64,000 bases of DNA, taken from assembly GCA_021731625.1 (NCBI GenBank), contig JAKFXC010000062.1, forward strand, positions 4,479 through 68,478, given 5' to 3'. Under the pieces are notes generated by a model. It was given only the letters and a program-made list of their open reading frames with translations. It was not told where the DNA came from and searched no databases. Each line of letters begins with the position of its first letter. Positions within the stretch are counted from its first letter, which is position 1. Position numbers and translations under genes: made by a program. The stretch comes from Candidatus Omnitrophota bacterium (GTDB taxonomy: Bacteria; Omnitrophota; Gorgyraeia; Zapsychrales; Fredricksoniimonadaceae). This document shows, piece by piece, positions 53,387 through 64,000 of this stretch.

Positions 53387-56300
53387 ATGAACAAATCCAA
53401 AAAAACCGCATACCTTGCTTCCTTTATTATAGTTTCTTTCGTCACCAGTTTTTCGCAAACGCCGGTCTACGCCCAGGAACTGATCCTGCCGTTGCCCGGG
53501 ACCATGGTCACGGCCAGCCCTAAATTTGCGCCAGCCATTATACGCGGTATCCAGTTTAACGCCAAAAACCCCTTCCAATTTGATTTTATCATTGACCGCG
53601 GGGACGACAAGCTCTCCGGGGAGGCTTTGAAACAGGAGTCCTTGAAACTCATCAAGTATTTCCTGGCCGGCTTGACTGTGCCGCAAAAGGACTTGTGGGT
53701 CAACCTCTCGCCGTACGAAAAAGGCCGCATTGTGCCGGACGGCTTTGGCCAAACCGACATGGGCCGCGACCTGTTGGCGCAGGATTACCTTTTGAAACAA
53801 CTGACCGCGTCGCTGGTGTACCCAGAAAAAGAATTAGGCAAAAAGTTTTGGGAAAAAGTCTACGCTAGGGCCAAAGAGCAGTTCGGTTCGGCCCAAATAC
53901 CCGTTAATACCTTTAATAAGGTGTGGATCGTGCCGGACAAGGCCGTGGTGTTGGAGCGTAAAGGCGGCGTGTATGTGTCTCAAAGCCATTTGAAGGTGAT
54001 GCTGGAACAAGACTACCTGGCTTCTCAAAAAAACGTTAAGGTAGCTAGGTCCCAGAAGGGGATTACCACTGCTTCAGACAAGGCCGTGTCTTCCCAAACC
54101 ATCCGCGACATCATTCTCCCCGAGATCGAACAGGAAGTCAATGAAGGCGCCAATTTCGCCGCCTTGCGCCAGGTGTTCAATTCTCTAATTTTGGCCATCT
54201 GGTATAAAAAGAACCTCAAAGATGCGGTGCTCAATAGAGTTTATGCTAACTCCAACAAAATCAACGGCATTGATATTGAAGATAAAGACAGCAAGGAGAA
54301 AATTTACCAGCAGTACCTGCAGGCGTTTAAAAAAGGTGTGTATAGCTATATTAAGGAAGATGCTACGCCTGCGGGTCAGTCAGCCGCCAGGAAATATTTT
54401 TCCGGCGGCGTCAACGTGGAAAACTTGGTTGTGGAAACCGAAAAAGAAAACCAGGCCATGGCCCTCACCATCGCTGAACGGAGCCGCAATGGCGATCTGG
54501 CTCAAATTAGCTGGTTGACCCAGGAGGTTAAAAATCCTAGGTATAGACAAAATTACACACAGGCCCGGTATACCTTCTTAATGAGCACCAAAGGCTATCA
54601 GGAGAGCCTGGGTCGTAAATTTGCACTGCAACTGGATGCTAATCGTGGTGATGGTGTGCTCTCGTATCATCAGCAATTATTGCAAAAAGCATTTAGCCTC
54701 GACCTGAAGAAGCAGAAGGAATTCCTGGCTGCATATAAAGATTATTTTAAATATAACCGCTATGGGATGGAAAATTCATCGATCCCCCGGACCTCGAAAA
54801 ATTGGTGGGTACGGAGCCCGCATTCGGATACTACGAGGGTGAGCATTTCACTTCCTATGCGACCGATGAACTGCTGGCTGTGGATTATCTTAAGACTTTT
54901 GCCCCGGCAGATTTTGACCGCGAACTCAACTGGCTGCTCGTGGAAGTTCCCGCCTTAACGGACGAGCAGGATATGAGTTCCGAAAAGCTGCTGCAATATT
55001 TGGACGAGGCCATTAAGCGCTTGTTCTCCTTTGCAGACCTTAAGCTTCATACGGATGTCCGCTTTCAAGTAGAGCAAGACTTACGCACCTATTTTTATAA
55101 ACAGCTGCTAAATCGCAAAAGTACTTCCCAGCGTATAATCCGGTTGTCCAACACCACGTCGCGCGATGGCCAGCAATCTAACAAAGGCACAAACCTGACA
55201 GGTCTTGACCAGTGGAAACTATTGTCCTGGATTGTAAAATTTGGCAATGTATCCACGATTGAATCCTGGGGCGGGGCTGCAAATCAATCCGCGGTCTTAA
55301 AGACCAAGCGCATTTATCAAGTGCCCGGACAGGAAGAGCCGCTGAAAAATTGGGCCGAGGACCCTTTTTTTAATTTAAGAGAGCAGACAAAATTGTTGGA
55401 AGATAACCTCAAGGAAGCTTTTGGGGAAGACCTGGATCGGTTGGAGGATGATGACCGCGAAAGGATTTTCAATCGGTACAAGCGCGACTTTGACCGCAAA
55501 ATCTTATCCGAATTTGACCTTAATGCGATTCTGAAAAGATACAATCTCAGTGAACAGGTGAAGAATCGCGTCCGTAAAGTCTATGAGATTAAGCAGGAAA
55601 TGCTTTTACGCGGGACTTTTCTGGTTGCCCTGGATCAGTTTCCGGAACCGGTGGTGAAGGAATTTGTGGAGGTGGCATGGCGGAATGGAGTCGATGTTTT
55701 TCGTATTTTTGATGCCATGAACCGGATCAACGAAATCGATGGGCCGCTTAAATACGCCCGGGCCCTGGGAGCTAAAGTCCAGCCTGCCATTCATTACACC
55801 AAAGGTTTTCCTAGGGGGATTCCTAAATATGTGGAGCTAGCCAAGGAATTGGTCAGAATCAGCGGGCACGCCCTGGATAGTTTAGTGATCAAGGATGCCG
55901 CAGGCCAGTTGGAGCCGGAGGAAGCCTATAAACTGGTTAAAGCTTTGCGTCAGGCGGGCATCACTGTTCCGATTCAAATCCATACCCATGATACCAATGG
56001 TAATCGGCAATTGACGTTGTTGGAAGCTATCCGAGCCAACGGGGAAGATTATCCCATTATTGTGGATGTGTCCACCGGTGAGTTGGCCGCACCCTTGGCC
56101 CAGCCCAATGACCGCCATTTTTTAAACATTGTGCAGGGAACAAAGTGGGAGGGGACGCTCATTAAAGATGTGGATTTTGAGCAAATGGAGCAAGCGGAAT
56201 TTTTTATAAAAAGCGACATTAACCTTCACAGTCCCTCTGTGCCAATGACGACCGAAGATCGTTTACGCATCGTGAGAGCGAACATTCCCGGAGGTTTAAA

Positions 56301-58519: not shown

Positions 58520-59031
58520 TGTTTGAACCAGTTCTGTTCCAGGCATTGCCGCAGCTGCAAGCGGGCCCGATAGAGCAGTACCCATAGATTAGTCGAAGAT
58601 ACCCCTAAAATCTTACAAATTTCCTCGCTTTGCATCGCTTCCAGTTTGCGCAGACGGAAGGCTTGCGCAGCTTTGTCCGGCAAACGCCCCATGCAGTCCT
58701 GGAACAGCTGCCAAAACTCCTTGTTTTCCAGCAAGGCGGCGGGGTTAAATTGCCAATTGCCGGGGGCTTTGGCCAAATGGCCATAATCGGCATTGTCAAA
58801 AAATTGCTCCACGTGCATGTCAGCTTCGACCAGTTGCGAGGCCGGCACTTCCCTATATGTAAGACGCAGATAATCTGCGATTTTATGTTTGAGGATGCCG
58901 ATCAACCAAGTTTGTTCGCTGGATTTACCTTGGAAATGGGCACGGTTCTGCAAAGCAGAAAGCAAGGTTTCCTGTACCAGGTTTTGGGCTTGGTCTGGCT
59001 GGGCGATCGATTTGAGGGCGTAGGCATACAA
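58516..59031 (-). CDS. ECF-subfamily RNA polymerase sigma-70 factor (TTG start)
   Basis: Region 2 (LVQETLLSALQNRAHFQGKSSEQTWLIGILKHKIADYLR) and region 4 HTH (SEEICKILGVSSTNLWVLLYRARLQLRQCL). Confidence 0.8.
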   Translation of the reverse strand: MYAYALKSIAQPDQAQNLVQETLLSALQNRAHFQGKSSEQTWLIGILKHKIADYLRLTYREVPASQLVEADMHVEQFFDNADYGHLAKAPGNWQFNPAALLENKEFWQLFQDCMGRLPDKAAQAFRLRKLEAMQSEEICKILGVSSTNLWVLLYRARLQLRQCLEQNWFKQ

Positions 59032-59199
59032 GCTCGCCGTATAAATCGACCCAATCCTCGGGATCTGAAGAAGATGCGGAAGACATCAGCCCTCATTCAA
59101 CCTGAGACGGACAAAAAAGGCAAGAATTTTGTAAGGATTTGCTGGTATAATCGACTAATACGCAAAGGCAAAGAAAATCAGGAAAGGCCGGTCCCATTG

Positions 59200-60738
59200 A
59201 TGAATGCCCCTGCAAACCATGATATTCTTAATTTCATAGGATTCTTTTTCGCCGGCTTGACAGTCAACCTTACCCCGTGCGTGTACCCCATGCTTGCGGT
59301 GACGGCGTCGCTATTTAAGCCAAAACCTGAATTGCGGGAAGACCTTCGGCATTCTTTTGCCAGGGCCCTGGCGTATTTTTTGGGCATTGTCTTTACCTAT
59401 TGCGCCCTGGGGTATTTTGCCGCTTCGACAGGTAAGTTATTCGGCAGCGCTCTGCAAAGCCAGTGGGTGCAGGGGGTTGTCGGCCTGTTCATGCTGGGTT
59501 TAGCCCTGTCTATGTTTGGCTTTTTCCACTTGCGTATTCCGGCTGGAATTCTAAGCCATCTGGGTAAATTCCGCAAAGCCGATTATCCGGGGCTGTTTGC
59601 CTCCGGGATGCTAGTCGGCGTTTTTGCGGCGCCGTGCATCGGCCCGCCGGTGCTGGCCCTGCTGGCGGCCGTGGCGGACAACGGCAATCCGCAATACGGG
59701 TTCACGGCGTTCTTGACATTTTCTTCCGGGTTGGGGTTGCCCTATTTGCTTTTGGGGACTTTTGAGAATTTGATTGTCAAATTGCCCAAAACTGGGACGT
59801 GGCTCATTTGGATGCAGCGTTTCTTTGGGGTGGTCTTGCTGGGTTTTTCTTTTTTCTATTTGTCGGTGGCGTTTGGCCCACATTCAATCAAGAAAAATAG
59901 GGACTCGATTTGGAAACCGTACAGCGTTGAAGCGGTGCAAGGGGCTTTGGCGGCGCATACGCCGGTCATCATCGACCTTTTTGCCGAATGGTGTTTGAGC
60001 TGTTATGAATTGGAAGACCAGGTGTTTGCCAAACCAGCGGTCAAGGCAGAGCTGGCCAAGGCCGTCACGTTGCGGGTGGACATGACGGACGTTAATACCC
60101 CGGAAAATCGGCAATTTGGCGAACAATATGAGATCATTGGCTTGCCGACGGTGATTTTTTTAGGGCCGGACGGCAAAGAGATTCGAGAGGCGCGGGTGGA
60201 GGGGGTCAGTTCTTTGAAGGATTTTTTGAAGTCGCTGGACATGCAGCAGAAAAGTTTTGGCGTAACCCCGGTAAAGGAGGGTCCGATGAGCGATGCCCAA
60301 TCCAACAGGGTCCGCATTTTTGATGCGGCGAGTCAAACATATAAGGTGGTGGACAAAGTCGTTAAATCCGACGAGGAGTGGAAGAAAATCTTGACCCCGG
60401 AGCAGTTGCGCGTGACCCGCGGCCACGGCACCGAGCGGGCTTTTTGCGCCCTGCCCACCAAGCACACCAAAGGCATTTACAAATGCGTGGGTTGCGGCAC
60501 CGATTTATTTTTGGTGGGTAATAAATTTGAGTCTGGCACCGGTTGGCCGAGCTTTTGGCAGCCGCTCGATGAGGCCAATGTGGGTACCCAAGTGGACAAG
60601 CAATTCGGCATGGTGCGCACGGAAGTGCATTGCGCACGGTGCAATGGGCATTTGGGGCATGTGTTTGATGACGGCCCACCGCCTACCGGAAAACGCTACT
60701 GCATCAATTCTGTGGCCTTGAAATTTGAGGAGGCATAA
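59200..60738 (+). CDS. Fusion protein: DsbD/CcdA-like transmembrane thiol-disulfide transporter + thioredoxin-like domain (WCLSC) + methionine-R-sulfoxide reductase MsrB
   Basis: CcdA-type TM region with LTPCVYPML and AAPCIGP cysteine motifs; Trx CXXC AEWCLSCYELED; MsrB RGHGTERAF...CVGCG...GWPSF...CARCNGHLGHVF. The ORF-track N-terminus (58630) overlaps the antisense sigma gene and is rejected. Confidence 0.75.
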   Translation: MNAPANHDILNFIGFFFAGLTVNLTPCVYPMLAVTASLFKPKPELREDLRHSFARALAYFLGIVFTYCALGYFAASTGKLFGSALQSQWVQGVVGLFMLGLALSMFGFFHLRIPAGILSHLGKFRKADYPGLFASGMLVGVFAAPCIGPPVLALLAAVADNGNPQYGFTAFLTFSSGLGLPYLLLGTFENLIVKLPKTGTWLIWMQRFFGVVLLGFSFFYLSVAFGPHSIKKNRDSIWKPYSVEAVQGALAAHTPVIIDLFAEWCLSCYELEDQVFAKPAVKAELAKAVTLRVDMTDVNTPENRQFGEQYEIIGLPTVIFLGPDGKEIREARVEGVSSLKDFLKSLDMQQKSFGVTPVKEGPMSDAQSNRVRIFDAASQTYKVVDKVVKSDEEWKKILTPEQLRVTRGHGTERAFCALPTKHTKGIYKCVGCGTDLFLVGNKFESGTGWPSFWQPLDEANVGTQVDKQFGMVRTEVHCARCNGHLGHVFDDGPPPTGKRYCINSVALKFEEA

Positions 60739-60800: not shown

Positions 60801-61337
60801 ATGAGCGATGCCAATTATCAAAAAGCCACTTTTGCCGGGGGCTGCTTCTGGTGCATGCAGCCTTTTTTGGAAAAGCTTAAAGGGGTCAAAAAAGTCACGG
60901 TTGGCTATACCGGCGGCCAGACCGTCAATCCAACCTATGAGCAAGTGACCTCCGGCAACACCGGACATGCCGAAGCGGCAGAAGTTTTGTTTGACCCGCA
61001 GGAGATTTCCTACGCCAAATTGCTCGACGTGTTCTGGCGCAACATTGATCCCACCACCGAGAATCAGCAATTTGTGGACATCGGCACCCAGTACCGCAGT
61101 GCGGTGTATTATCACGATGCCCAGCAGAAGCGTCTGGCGGAAGAATCCAAGAAGCAGCTAGAGGCTTCAGGCAAGTTCGATAAGCCGATTGTCACTGAGA
61201 TTTCCGCCGCTTTGCCGTTTTATCCGGCCGAGAATTACCATCAGGACTATTACAAGAAAAGCCCGCTGCATTACAAAATGTACAGCACCGGCTCCGGCCG
61301 AGAGCAGTTCTTGCAGAAGGCATGGGGCAAGGACTGA
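60801..61337 (+). CDS. msrA: Peptide methionine-S-sulfoxide reductase
   Basis: Canonical GGCFWC active site, YHQDYY and the whole-length MsrA pattern. Confidence 0.9.
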   Translation: MSDANYQKATFAGGCFWCMQPFLEKLKGVKKVTVGYTGGQTVNPTYEQVTSGNTGHAEAAEVLFDPQEISYAKLLDVFWRNIDPTTENQQFVDIGTQYRSAVYYHDAQQKRLAEESKKQLEASGKFDKPIVTEISAALPFYPAENYHQDYYKKSPLHYKMYSTGSGREQFLQKAWGKD

Positions 61338-61348
61338 TGAGTGTCCCC

Positions 61349-61376
61349 TTGACATGTGGGTTGTTCATGATATAAT
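61349..61376 (+). promoter_or_regulatory. Consensus sigma-70-type promoter TTGACA-N16-TATAAT upstream of the MarR-fusion gene
   Basis: Exact hexamers with a 16-bp spacer, seen in the sequence. Confidence 0.5.
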
Positions 61377-61388
61377 TTATCAAGTTAA

Positions 61389-61407
61389 TAGTTAATCGAG
61401 TTAACTA
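61389..61407. promoter_or_regulatory. Palindrome TAGTTAA-tcgag-TTAACTA between the promoter and the start codon; candidate MarR operator
   Basis: 7-bp perfect inverted arms; the position is typical of MarR autoregulation. Confidence 0.4.
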
Positions 61408-61419
61408 GATAGAGGTCCC

Positions 61420-63129
61420 GTGGACATCCAGGATTTCAGCCGCCGCATGATCGAGCTCTTGCCCAAATGCATCCGCGGCTTTCAGGGCTACGAAAGCAAT
61501 TATCTCTCCCGAGGTCAGATCAGCTTGCCGCAGTTTTGGGCCTTGGAATACCTCTCCCGGCACGGCCACTGCCTGATGAGTGAATTGGCCGTTTTTTTGG
61601 GGATCTCCCGGCCGGCTGCCACCGGCCTCATCAACCGCCTGATCGCCCAAAAATTGGTGGACCGCCGCAGCGAACAGAAAGACCGCCGCACCGTGCGGGT
61701 CAGCATTTCCGCCAAGGGCAAAAAGATTGTTACCCACGTTTGGCAGCAAAAACGCCGCGGCATGGAAACCGTCTTTGCCAAAATTTCGGCTGCTGAGCGT
61801 AAACAGTATCTGGATATCTTAGAGAAGGTGGTCAATAATTTCAGCCCTAAAATACTGATCGGGGCGGTGGTGTTGGGGGCGGCTTTTGTGGGTGCGGATT
61901 GCGGCCAAGCACAGGAGGCCCCCCTAGCCAATTTGACCTTGCGGCAGGCTTACGAACTTGCACTCAAGCGCAGTGAAACCCTCGCCATACAAAAGCAGGT
62001 GATTGAAGAGGCGCATGGCCGGCTCAGCCAAACCATCAGCCGGTCTTTGCCGCAGGTGTCTTTTACCGACACGGAGAAATTTCAAGACCGCTTTTCCAGC
62101 TCATCCTCCTCAGAAAATAGTTCCCGGGTGTATGTGCCGACCCGGACGTTCACCTTTAGCCAACCTTTGTTTTCCGGTTTTCGAGAATTTGCCGCCATCG
62201 CTGCCAACAAAGCTGAGCGTAAACAGCGCGAACAGGAGTTGGAACGGGCTAAACAATTGCTGTTTACCGATGTTTCCGACGCCTTTTATTTGTCCATCGG
62301 CTATCAGCAGCAATTGGGCATTCTGCTCGAAGTCAATAAAGTCTTGCAGGGACGGTCCGACGAATTGAGCCAGCGGCTGTCCATTGGCCGGTCGCGCCCC
62401 AGCGAAGTGGCCAACACCGAATCCAAATTTTACCAAAACGAGGCGGACATTGAATCCTTGCGCGGCCAGCAGGATTCTTCTTTTGAACTGATGGAGTTCT
62501 TGGTCGGCCATAAAATTGAGTCCTTGGCAGAGACAAAGGTCCTGCCGGCGGGCCTTCCGACCCGGGAGGAATATTTGGCCAGGGTAGCCCAGAGGGCGGA
62601 TGTGCTGGCGGCAAAGCATGCCAGCGTGGCCGCAGAAAAAAACATCACGGTGCAAAGGGCAGGGTATTTTCCATCCGTCAATGTCACCGGCAATTCGTAC
62701 TTGAAGCGGGTGGGCCCGATAGGTGATTCGGATTGGGATGTGACCGTCAATATTTCGGTGCCCCTTTTTAATGCCAAAGAGACAGCCGGGGCCGTGACCA
62801 TTGCCAGGGCCCAGGCCGAGCAGGCTAAATTGCGCCTTAGCCAGGCCCAGCGTCAGGCCGATTTGGACATCAAAAATGCATACACTAATCTGTCGGCAGG
62901 CATGAAGCGGATGGAGGCATATCACAAAGCCGTTCAAGCCGCCGAGAAGAATTATGCGCTGCAGTCTGGTGATTACACCAAAAGTCTGGTCAACAACCTG
63001 GACGTGCTGCAGGCCTTGGAAGATCTGCAAAGCGTGCGCGGGGATTACATCTCGGTTAAAAATGAAACCCAACGGGCTTATTGGTCCCTCAAGGTAGCGG
63101 CAGGAGATATTTCCGATGACACTCTCTGA
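61420..63129 (+). CDS. MarR-family transcriptional regulator N-terminal domain fused in frame (no stop) to a TolC-like outer-membrane efflux protein
   Basis: Residues 1-145 form a MarR wHTH (MSELAVFLGISRPAATGLINRLIAQKLVDRRSEQKDRRTVRVSISAKGKKIV). A signal-peptide-like KILIGAVVLGAAFVGADCGQAQ segment follows, then OEP repeats (LTLRQAYELALKRSETL...), with no intervening stop codon. Confidence 0.6.
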   Translation: MDIQDFSRRMIELLPKCIRGFQGYESNYLSRGQISLPQFWALEYLSRHGHCLMSELAVFLGISRPAATGLINRLIAQKLVDRRSEQKDRRTVRVSISAKGKKIVTHVWQQKRRGMETVFAKISAAERKQYLDILEKVVNNFSPKILIGAVVLGAAFVGADCGQAQEAPLANLTLRQAYELALKRSETLAIQKQVIEEAHGRLSQTISRSLPQVSFTDTEKFQDRFSSSSSSENSSRVYVPTRTFTFSQPLFSGFREFAAIAANKAERKQREQELERAKQLLFTDVSDAFYLSIGYQQQLGILLEVNKVLQGRSDELSQRLSIGRSRPSEVANTESKFYQNEADIESLRGQQDSSFELMEFLVGHKIESLAETKVLPAGLPTREEYLARVAQRADVLAAKHASVAAEKNITVQRAGYFPSVNVTGNSYLKRVGPIGDSDWDVTVNISVPLFNAKETAGAVTIARAQAEQAKLRLSQAQRQADLDIKNAYTNLSAGMKRMEAYHKAVQAAEKNYALQSGDYTKSLVNNLDVLQALEDLQSVRGDYISVKNETQRAYWSLKVAAGDISDDTL

Positions 63130-64000
63130 TCTGTCGATTAACCGCCCGGTGTTTGCGTGGATGGTCATGGGGGCCTTGATCCTGTTTGGGGCCATGGGTT
63201 TTTCCCGCATGGGGGTCAGCCAATTGCCGGACGTGGAATTTCCGGTCATTTCCATCAGCGTCACCTGGTCGGGGGCGGCTCCGGAGGTCATGGAATCGGA
63301 AGTGGTGGATGTTATTGAACAGGCGGTGATGTCGGTTCAGGGGATCCGCGATGTTTCCTCGTCGGTGTCAAACGGGTCCGCTTCGATCACCATCGAGTTG
63401 CAGTTGGACCGCAAGATTGATTTTGCGGTCCAGGAAGTGCAAAGCAAAATCGCCCAGGCCCAGCGCCTGTTGCCCAAAGACATTGACCCGCCCATTGTCA
63501 CGAAGGCCAACCCCACCCAACAGCCCATCACTTGGCTGGCTTTGACCGGCGAGCGGCCGGCCCGTGAGCTCATGGCCTTCGTTCAAGACCATTTGAAAGA
63601 TAAATTTTCCACCGTGGCCGGCGTGGGGGACATTGCTTTGGGAGGGTTTGTGGCGCCGGCATTGCGGGTGTGGGTTGATGCGGACAAGCTGCTTGCCAAG
63701 GAATTGACCGTCGATGATGTGATCAATACCATCCAATCTGAACATTCGGAACTTCCAGCCGGGCGCATTGAAACCCAGCTGAAGGAACAAAATGTGCGGG
63801 CCATGGGAGAAGCCAAGACAGCCGAAGAATTCGGTAACATTGCCATTACCAAGCGCAACGGCCAGCCTGTGTACGCGCCCATTTACTTGAAAGACGTGGC
63901 CACCATTGAAGATGGCCTCGACGATGTGCGCCGTATTTCGCGCAGTGACGGCAAGTCCGCCGTCGGGTTGGGGATCCGCAAACAAGTCGGTTCCAATGAA
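63118..64000 (+). CDS. RND efflux transporter permease (AcrB/CzcA family), 3' partial; continues beyond the window
   Basis: The N-terminal LSDLSINRPVFAWMVMGALILFGAMGFSRMGVSQLPDVEFPVISISV is the universal RND start; the frame is open to the window edge. Confidence 0.8.

Follow-up and report, generated by a model that had tools for sequence, protein, structure and literature searches.

An in-frame fusion of a MarR-type regulator and a TolC-type outer-membrane factor in an Omnitrophota efflux operon without an adaptor gene

The stretch of DNA analyzed here (hereafter the window) comprises 64,000 nt of contig JAKFXC010000062.1 (positions 4,479 to 68,478, forward strand) from the assembly GCA_021731625.1 of a Candidatus Omnitrophota bacterium. 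Near its end, a single open reading frame (ORF) extends on the plus strand from 61420 to 63129, starts with GTG and encodes a protein of 569 aa; the end coordinate includes the TGA stop codon at 63127–63129. Within this one frame, a MarR-type regulator is followed by an outer-membrane efflux protein (OEP) of the TolC type, that is, an outer-membrane factor (OMF), and the gene of an RND permease follows directly. The features of the locus are:

61349–61376, plus strand: sigma-70-type promoter, TTGACA, 16-nt spacer with a TG extension, TATAAT; match to the consensus in 12 of 12 positions
61378–61411, strand-neutral: predicted MarR operator, a core palindrome and a longer inverted repeat, directly 3' of the −10 box
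61412–61416, plus strand: Shine-Dalgarno-like motif GAGGT, 3 nt 5' of the GTG start codon
61420–61842, plus strand: MarR domain (aa 1–141) with helices α1–α6 and a beta-wing, predicted to be cytoplasmic; seen with Pfam, NCBIfam, AlphaFold2, Foldseek and the PDB
61843–61911, plus strand: internal signal-peptide-like segment (aa 142–164); seen in the alignment with unfused signal peptides, in hydropathy and with AlphaFold2
61912–63126, plus strand: mature outer-membrane factor of the TolC/OEP family (aa 165–569); seen with Pfam OEP, AlphaFold2 and Foldseek
63116–64000, plus strand: RND permease (AcrB/MdtC-like), 5' part only (295 aa in the window; ACR_tran, E = 4e-77), running off the window end

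The fused protein and its junction

The N-terminal part of the protein was recognized by the Pfam families MarR_2 (aa 34–90, 56.1 bits at a cut-off of 27) and MarR (38.4 bits at a cut-off of 24.6), which together span aa 34–92. NCBIfam MarR-type models cover aa 19–141, and a sequence search of the PDB returned MarR-family proteins, with Rv1404 as the best match (2e-11). The remaining part matched Pfam OEP (PF02321) in two stretches that correspond to both OEP repeats (143.4 bits, cut-off 22), and NCBIfam TolC-type models cover it from about aa 157 or 171 to aa 567. A preliminary description, made from the letters of this DNA alone, had reported that the MarR domain continues without a stop codon into the OEP, and the ORF as well as the Pfam and NCBIfam assignments are in full agreement with this. 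The scores against the curated NCBIfam subfamily models were 138.6 bits for TIGR01844 (TolC; cut-off 225.15) and 90.1 bits for TIGR01845 (NodT; cut-off 210.05), and the OEP part is an OMF that belongs to neither of these two subfamilies.

The AlphaFold2 model of the fusion, with a mean predicted local distance difference test score (pLDDT) of 91.2, contains two complete, independent folds that are joined by a helix and a flexible loop. The MarR fold is complete at residues 3–140, mostly with pLDDT values above 90, and consists of helices at 3–17, 36–48, 53–60, 64–76, 98–119 and 124–140 and of strands at 80–84 and 92–96, with the dimerisation helices α1, α5 and α6 as well as the α3–α4 winged helix-turn-helix and its beta-wing. 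It is followed by an isolated helix (143–157) and by a loop of low confidence, with the minimum at 160–162, after which the OEP part forms a complete TolC protomer (pLDDT above 90). With Foldseek, the OEP part retrieved TolC, CusC, OprM and VceC at E values around 1e-18 over 400–420 columns (TM 0.68–0.78, target-normalised), and the MarR part retrieved structures of MarR, HpaR and BpsR at E values around 1e-4. Within the oep coding region, a 393-aa antisense ORF is also present (62110–63291, minus strand), which is a putative shadow ORF and not a gene.

An N-terminal cleavable signal peptide, one of the features by which OEP membership was assessed, was not found in the fusion; a motif of the signal peptidase I (SPase I) type is present, but it is internal and lies behind the 141-aa MarR domain. 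The segment that carries it begins with a short polar stretch (S-P-K), followed by a hydrophobic h-region of 15 residues (I145–A159) and a c-region (D160–A164), with a predicted SPase I site at G162-Q163-A164/Q165 and an alternative at V157-G158-A159/D160. In all fused proteins found in the searches described below, a hydrophobic stretch, and then a small-x-small motif, follows within about 5–8 residues of the C-terminal helix of MarR (…ILE[KR]VV…), and the h-region and the A-x-A c-region can be matched, column by column, to the signal peptides at the N-terminus of unfused OEPs. The median length of the uncharged stretch is 15 residues in 22 fused proteins and 14 residues in 98 unfused proteins, and the peak hydropathies are nearly the same (2.94 and 2.93, respectively). 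To judge from these comparisons, the internal segment resembles a usual signal peptide of the Sec pathway. The preliminary description had taken it for a signal peptide of the lipoprotein type. This was incorrect, because the Asp at the position before Cys161 is at odds with a lipobox, and the Cys itself is not conserved among the orthologues; the conserved feature is the A-x-A motif of the SPase I type.

Conservation and origin of the fusion

In a search over 5.8 billion proteins, only clusters with both MarR and OEP Pfam domains were kept, and about 22 such clusters were obtained. Their proteins have lengths of 550–588 aa, share 41–62% identity with the window protein and stem nearly all from metagenome-assembled genomes of Omnitrophota. 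One cluster member, MBI3602322.1, is named "TolC family protein" by NCBI, an annotation issue that renders the regulator invisible in databases. In addition, 80 loci were collected from the DNA of GTDB species representatives and classed by separate tblastn searches with the MarR part and the OEP part, with the following result:

10 of 80 loci: MarR and OEP in the same frame, no stop codon
38 of 80 loci: separate marR directly upstream of oep
24 of 80 loci: no marR upstream
8 of 80 loci: contig edge

Nine of the fused loci are closer relatives of the window locus, with identities of 55–67% in the MarR part and 44–51% in the OEP part. The tenth, L027, is distant (39% and 35%, respectively). The DRR motif of the wing is conserved in the MarR part of the orthologues, and the linkers of the fused genes vary in length, yet the frame is always kept. 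The presence of the same frame in independent assemblies from many environments excludes a sequencing error or a recent lesion. The preliminary description had proposed either a lost stop codon between two genes or an error, and had named a continuous ORF in orthologues, together with a fusion product detected by proteomics, as observations that would speak against it; the continuous ORF, that is, the sequence half, was observed. That the ORF results from faulty sequencing or assembly, or from a recent pseudogenising lesion confined to this genome, is suggested by nothing more than the a priori oddity of the architecture, and the probability of this explanation is close to nil: it is refuted by about 22 protein clusters and 10 species genomes with an identical architecture, which come from differing environments and projects and have diverged to the identities given above. 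We are highly confident that the fused ORF is real and maintained.

The 38 unfused loci, which answer the earlier suggestion to look for orthologues with separate marR and oep genes, also indicate how the fusion arose. The stop codon of marR and the ATG of oep overlap by 4 nt (ATGA) in 18 of these loci and by 1 nt in four, and the unfused OEPs start with a normal signal peptide (MKK or MR, an h-region and an A-x-A motif). Starting from an ATGA overlap, a small frame change at this position explains the fused form. The comparison thus points to separate, translationally coupled marR and oep genes as the ancestral state, which were merged by a small frame change. The part of the preliminary explanation according to which two genes had lost the stop codon between them therefore stands for the history of the locus. 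An altered genetic code was also considered and rejected: TGA works as a stop codon in these genomes, as seen in the ATGA overlaps and in the stop codon of the fusion itself, so that recoding is not involved.

The reverse process can be followed in locus L086 (Logan contig of SRR30757334, 5900–6130), a decayed fused gene in which the promoter has been kept and the operator has been lost. L086 is syntenic with the fused loci L001 and L002 (acetyltransferase, PIG-L, BacA, OEP, RND, MFS, amino-acid permease). About 90 nt remain of its MarR region, with 74% nucleotide identity to codons 33–63 of L004 and with stop codons inside; the rest is deleted. The start codon of the OEP in L086 is a former internal methionine codon of MarR (LMNEIASF to MNEAASF). 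This recruitment of a start from the old MarR sequence implies that, in the fused ancestor, the OEP lacked a separate start codon, and the fused state preceded the decay of MarR in the L086 lineage. In L022, which belongs to the same synteny group, MarR has been lost entirely.

In a neighbour-joining tree of the OEP parts, the fused loci are interleaved with MarR-less loci, and L027 is found in a distant part. Because this tree has no bootstrap support, it does not allow the fusion events to be counted, and we relied on the anatomy of the junction and on L086. The junction of L027 differs from the others (…LQKVKSNLIKG-VALCLLSGLLFSQDAHA/F), and P0023 and P0014/L005 have longer linkers (MKRIPQR... 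and VVKRPLARGFGKR..., respectively) that resemble an old MarR tail plus an old n-region. From these linkers, together with the different junction, the low identity and the distant position of L027, we infer that fusion took place independently at least twice, and probably more often, and that MarR was lost several times.

The operator, the RND permease and the missing adaptor gene

The promoter in front of the fused gene is as perfect as the preliminary description had stated. The core palindrome that follows it, TAGTTAA-N5-TTAACTA at 61389–61407, is also perfect, begins 13 nt past the −10 box and is nested in a longer 11-nt inverted repeat (61378–61388 and 61401–61411). It is unique in the window at up to one mismatch, with 0.00 occurrences expected from 100 shuffles. 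The position of the marR start is conserved among the orthologues (MDI[KQ]xFS[KR]RMIEL), and related loci, whether fused or not, have a TTGACA...TATA(A/C)T promoter at the equivalent place in front of marR. Directly after this promoter follows the operator (A)ATAGTTAA-N5-TTAACTAT(T), again in fused and unfused loci alike. When 1.14 Mb of related loci were scanned for the operator with up to two mismatches, 29 of the 32 matches fell 23–170 nt in front of a marR start, with most of them between −26 and −43; the copy in the window is located at −31. Altogether, upstream sequence was available for nine fused loci, eight of which have the operator upstream of marR, as do about 20 unfused loci. Among the MarR-less loci, the same scan yielded two matches only, one in L028 (two mismatches, about 9.8 kb upstream) and one in L071 (one mismatch, 666 nt upstream of OEP), and no such palindrome was found after the promoter of L086.

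The domain and the operator are thus kept together and lost together, which argues that the fused MarR still binds DNA. The position of the palindrome and its conservation upstream of marR also agree with the earlier proposal that it is a MarR operator, and we consider the fused MarR as a probably still working DNA-binding part. The opposite explanation would be that the MarR part is a non-functional relic, a mere long leader, and that regulation is performed by something else. The lineages of L022 and L086, which lost MarR and kept the operon, fit this explanation, but the identity to the window protein is higher for the MarR part than for the OEP part in the nine fused orthologues closest to it, a complete MarR fold is modelled, the DRR motif of the wing is conserved, and the operator is retained in fused loci and gone where MarR is gone. 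A relic is therefore very improbable.

Several loci differ from this general arrangement. In the fused locus L011 (9900–10000), the operator is located 101 nt upstream of the start codon instead of about 30–40 nt, and a GC-rich perfect hairpin, GCCCCGCCA-A-TGGCGGGGC, lies between the two. L027 (9980–11767) has a different upstream palindrome, ATAGTTTGA-N3-TCAAACTAT, and probably arose by a separate fusion event, with an operator variant of its own. Among the unfused loci, one sub-clade (L012, L015–L017, L020, L026, L029, L032, L033 and L038) contains a different MarR, which is 26–36% identical to that of the window and has the C-terminus ...YLEILKKI[SN]E[AV][LI]*, with the asterisk denoting the stop codon. 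These loci are devoid of the TAGTTAA-N5-TTAACTA operator, yet their OEPs are among the closer relatives of the window OEP, which suggests a replacement of the regulator.

The ATG of the RND gene at 63116 overlaps the 3' end of the fused gene by 14 nt and is preceded by an AGGAG Shine-Dalgarno motif 9 nt upstream. Exact-sequence look-ups of the window protein and of P0001 retrieved no record, and the region past the window end was judged from orthologous loci. The RND orthologue of L001 is a standard protein of 1046 aa, with 945 bits for ACR_tran over profile positions 2–1020 and without an extra domain. Among the 79 loci with data, the distance from oep to the start of the RND gene ranges from −10 to +227 nt, and none has an adaptor gene in cis. 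The genes 3' of RND vary, and those that were checked encode MFS permeases.

Adaptors of the MFP family were searched for with phmmer, using E. coli AcrA, MdtA, MacA, CusB and EmrA as queries, and then with an iterated profile, in all ORFs of at least 120 aa from the 80 loci and the window. No MFP was found in the window or in any fused locus, and none of ten mid-sized window proteins that were checked is an MFP. Only five of the 80 loci (L021, L036, L054, L058 and L064) contain MFP adaptors, 3–10 kb downstream of oep; where the neighbours are visible, these are located beside a second OEP and/or ORFs for an ABC ATPase or MFS-like proteins, and they appear to belong to other transporter systems. 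Two further candidates were rejected: the genes for proteins of about 400–430 aa that often follow RND encode MFS permeases, and the 473-aa upstream gene in L001 and L002 encodes a PIG-L deacetylase. The absence of an MFP adaptor between OEP and RND, already noted in the preliminary description, is therefore not a peculiarity of the window locus; it characterizes the (marR-)oep-rnd operons of Omnitrophota as a family. Adaptors beside other pumps do occur in at least some of these organisms, but never beside the OEP-RND pair.

Directly upstream of the fused gene, the window contains a methionine-sulfoxide repair module. It consists of a three-part fusion of a DsbD-type transmembrane domain, thioredoxin and MsrB (SelR) at 58630–60738 and of msrA at 60801–61337. 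Since the Pfam domains begin only at residue ~201, the true start of this fusion is probably located downstream of the TTG at 58630. Further upstream, a 523-aa ORF (53387–54958) matched no Pfam family at E ≤ 0.001.

Proposed processing of the fusion

The preliminary description had regarded a cytoplasmic DNA-binding domain in front of a secreted outer-membrane protein as topologically implausible. This objection is answered if the hydrophobic segment is an internal N-in signal that is cleaved by SPase I. We favor, with moderate confidence, a model in which a single polypeptide is made, SPase I frees the channel and a membrane-tethered MarR remains. One polypeptide would be translated from the start at 61420, and the MarR domain would fold and stay in the cytoplasm. 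The hydrophobic segment, the former signal peptide of the OEP, would engage the Sec machinery, so that the OEP part could be translocated. SPase I would then cut after the conserved A-x-A motif (A164/Q165), and the mature OEP would proceed to the outer membrane. MarR would stay on the inner membrane via the segment of about 15 residues, or be freed if this segment is degraded. Bound as a dimer to the conserved palindrome that follows the −10 box, MarR would repress the operon, and repressor and channel would be produced in a fixed 1:1 ratio. The C-terminal helix of MarR proteins is part of the dimer interface and is located opposite the DNA-binding lobes; a C-terminal tether would thus be geometrically compatible with DNA binding, a principle illustrated by regulators of the ToxR/CadC type.

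A more far-reaching version of this model, which we offer tentatively and with considerable doubt, is that the gene encodes a bacterial "polyprotein", which SPase I splits into a repressor and the channel that it regulates, with MarR tethered via its C-terminal dimerisation helix. As both would derive from one polypeptide, their ratio would be fixed at 1:1. The tethered MarR would sit near its own operator, because the membrane proteins of the operon would be inserted co-translationally, and degradation of the remnant of the signal peptide could release it. Separately, the RND permease may dock on this channel without a periplasmic adaptor.

Several points weigh against the favored model. Export through the internal signal, cleavage, tethering, DNA binding and repression are all steps that we infer. 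A literature search retrieved no case of bacterial SPase I cleavage behind a folded cytoplasmic domain of about 140 residues, only viral and eukaryotic cases. The n-region beside the h-region is often without a nearby positive charge. The absence of the MarR part from several lineages (L086, L022) shows that the fusion is dispensable. Lastly, some of the fused genes contain in-frame GTG, TTG or ATG codons before the h-region, including the window gene with GTG at codon 137 (61828), and P0023 retains an n-region of the MKR type, so that some internal initiation may occur in such genes.

A different explanation is that the OEP is made separately from an in-frame GTG or TTG codon near the junction, such as codon 137, and that the read-through fusion is a tolerated by-product of the lost stop codon. 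The occurrence of such codons upstream of the h-region in the window and in several orthologues, as well as the resemblance of the linkers of P0023 and L005/P0014 to an old n-region, would agree with it. However, no in-frame ATG, GTG or TTG near the junction is conserved in position among the fused genes: in L004, the 40 codons that precede the mature OEP are free of them, and at the "VV" position, where others have GTG, L001 reads GTA GTC. Of 33 unfused oep starts, 19 have a Shine-Dalgarno-like motif in front of them, but no consistent motif was found before the junction codons of the fused genes. In the window, a purine-rich stretch directly abuts the GTG of codon 137 without any spacing, whereas the GTG of marR and the ATG of RND do carry such motifs (GAGGT and AGGAG). 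Moreover, the OEP of L086 had to take its methionine from old MarR sequence, and ribosomes that start at 61420 would make the fusion anyway. Taken together, these results make separate initiation of the OEP rather unlikely, and the other part of the preliminary explanation, an OEP that starts at a non-ATG codon, found no support.

Alternatively, the protein might remain uncleaved as a bitopic protein of the ToxR/CadC type, in which a TolC-like periplasmic domain stays attached to the inner membrane and serves for sensing or docking. By analogy, the predicted topology, with an N-in winged helix-turn-helix (wHTH) domain, one hydrophobic helix and a periplasmic C-terminal part, is that of ToxR-like regulators. 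However, the hydrophobic segment is short and is followed by a conserved helix-breaking c-region with an A-x-A motif, as in cleavable signal peptides. Both beta-barrel repeats are present in the C-terminal part, which forms a complete OMF and has unfused OEPs as orthologues; these occupy the same operon position and overlap with the same RND gene. If the barrel were in the outer membrane, a linker of about 10 residues would be too short to span the periplasm. We therefore regard an uncleaved protein as quite improbable, and the release of the channel by SPase I remains our preferred model.

In terms of function, the locus is of a known kind, an OMF-RND efflux operon with putative autoregulation by MarR. 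In autoregulated efflux operons of the MarR family, the palindromic operator overlaps the promoter or the +1 region, as it does here. The mprA(emrR)-emrAB (gene order mprA-emrA-emrB) and marRAB operons of E. coli likewise have a MarR-type repressor as the first cistron of an efflux operon that it presumably controls. In the Omnitrophota locus, however, the repressor runs without a stop codon into the next protein of the operon, and it is predicted to be targeted to the membrane, whereas the repressors of E. coli are soluble. As for AcrAB-TolC, MexAB-OprM and CusCBA, the gene of an OMF with a TolC fold lies next to that of an AcrB/MdtC-like RND permease, here in overlapping frames; in contrast to these tripartite pumps, there is no MFP in the operon, the signal of the OMF is internal, and the OMF is not a lipoprotein.

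The likeness to ToxR and CadC is restricted to the topology, with an N-terminal cytoplasmic wHTH, one hydrophobic segment and a periplasmic C-terminal part. Regulators of this type show that binding to chromosomal DNA is possible from a membrane tether (PMC6320335, PMC10629549). The fusion differs from them in having a wHTH of the MarR type and not of the OmpR type, a cleavable-looking segment, and an outer-membrane channel rather than a sensor domain. In viral polyproteins, such as those of flaviviruses or NTB-VPg of tomato ringspot virus, a short internal hydrophobic segment with a small-x-small motif leads to translocation of the part behind it and is cleaved by the host signal peptidase, so that two functional proteins are separated (PMC5010249). 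Here the likeness is in mechanism only, since these are systems of the eukaryotic endoplasmic reticulum, and cleavage of the fusion is predicted. The in-frame fusion of repressor and channel, the internal export signal and the lack of an adaptor gene in cis set the locus apart from the systems described so far. Neither the literature that was searched nor the text of a major efflux review contained a MarR-OMF fusion, a membrane-anchored MarR or an adaptor-less OMF-RND operon, which, given the incomplete coverage, is weak evidence of novelty.

For the efflux field, the occurrence of OMF-RND pairs without an adjoining adaptor across the phylum means that either the adaptor is encoded elsewhere or the pump is assembled without one. 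Provided that processing takes place in the proposed manner, the fusion would represent a natural case, in bacteria, of two unrelated functional proteins, a cytoplasmic regulator and an outer-membrane channel, that are obtained from one polypeptide via signal peptidase. The MarR regulator would then act, at least transiently, from the membrane, and the dosage of the repressor would be tied directly to the export of the product that it regulates, a design that we have not found described.

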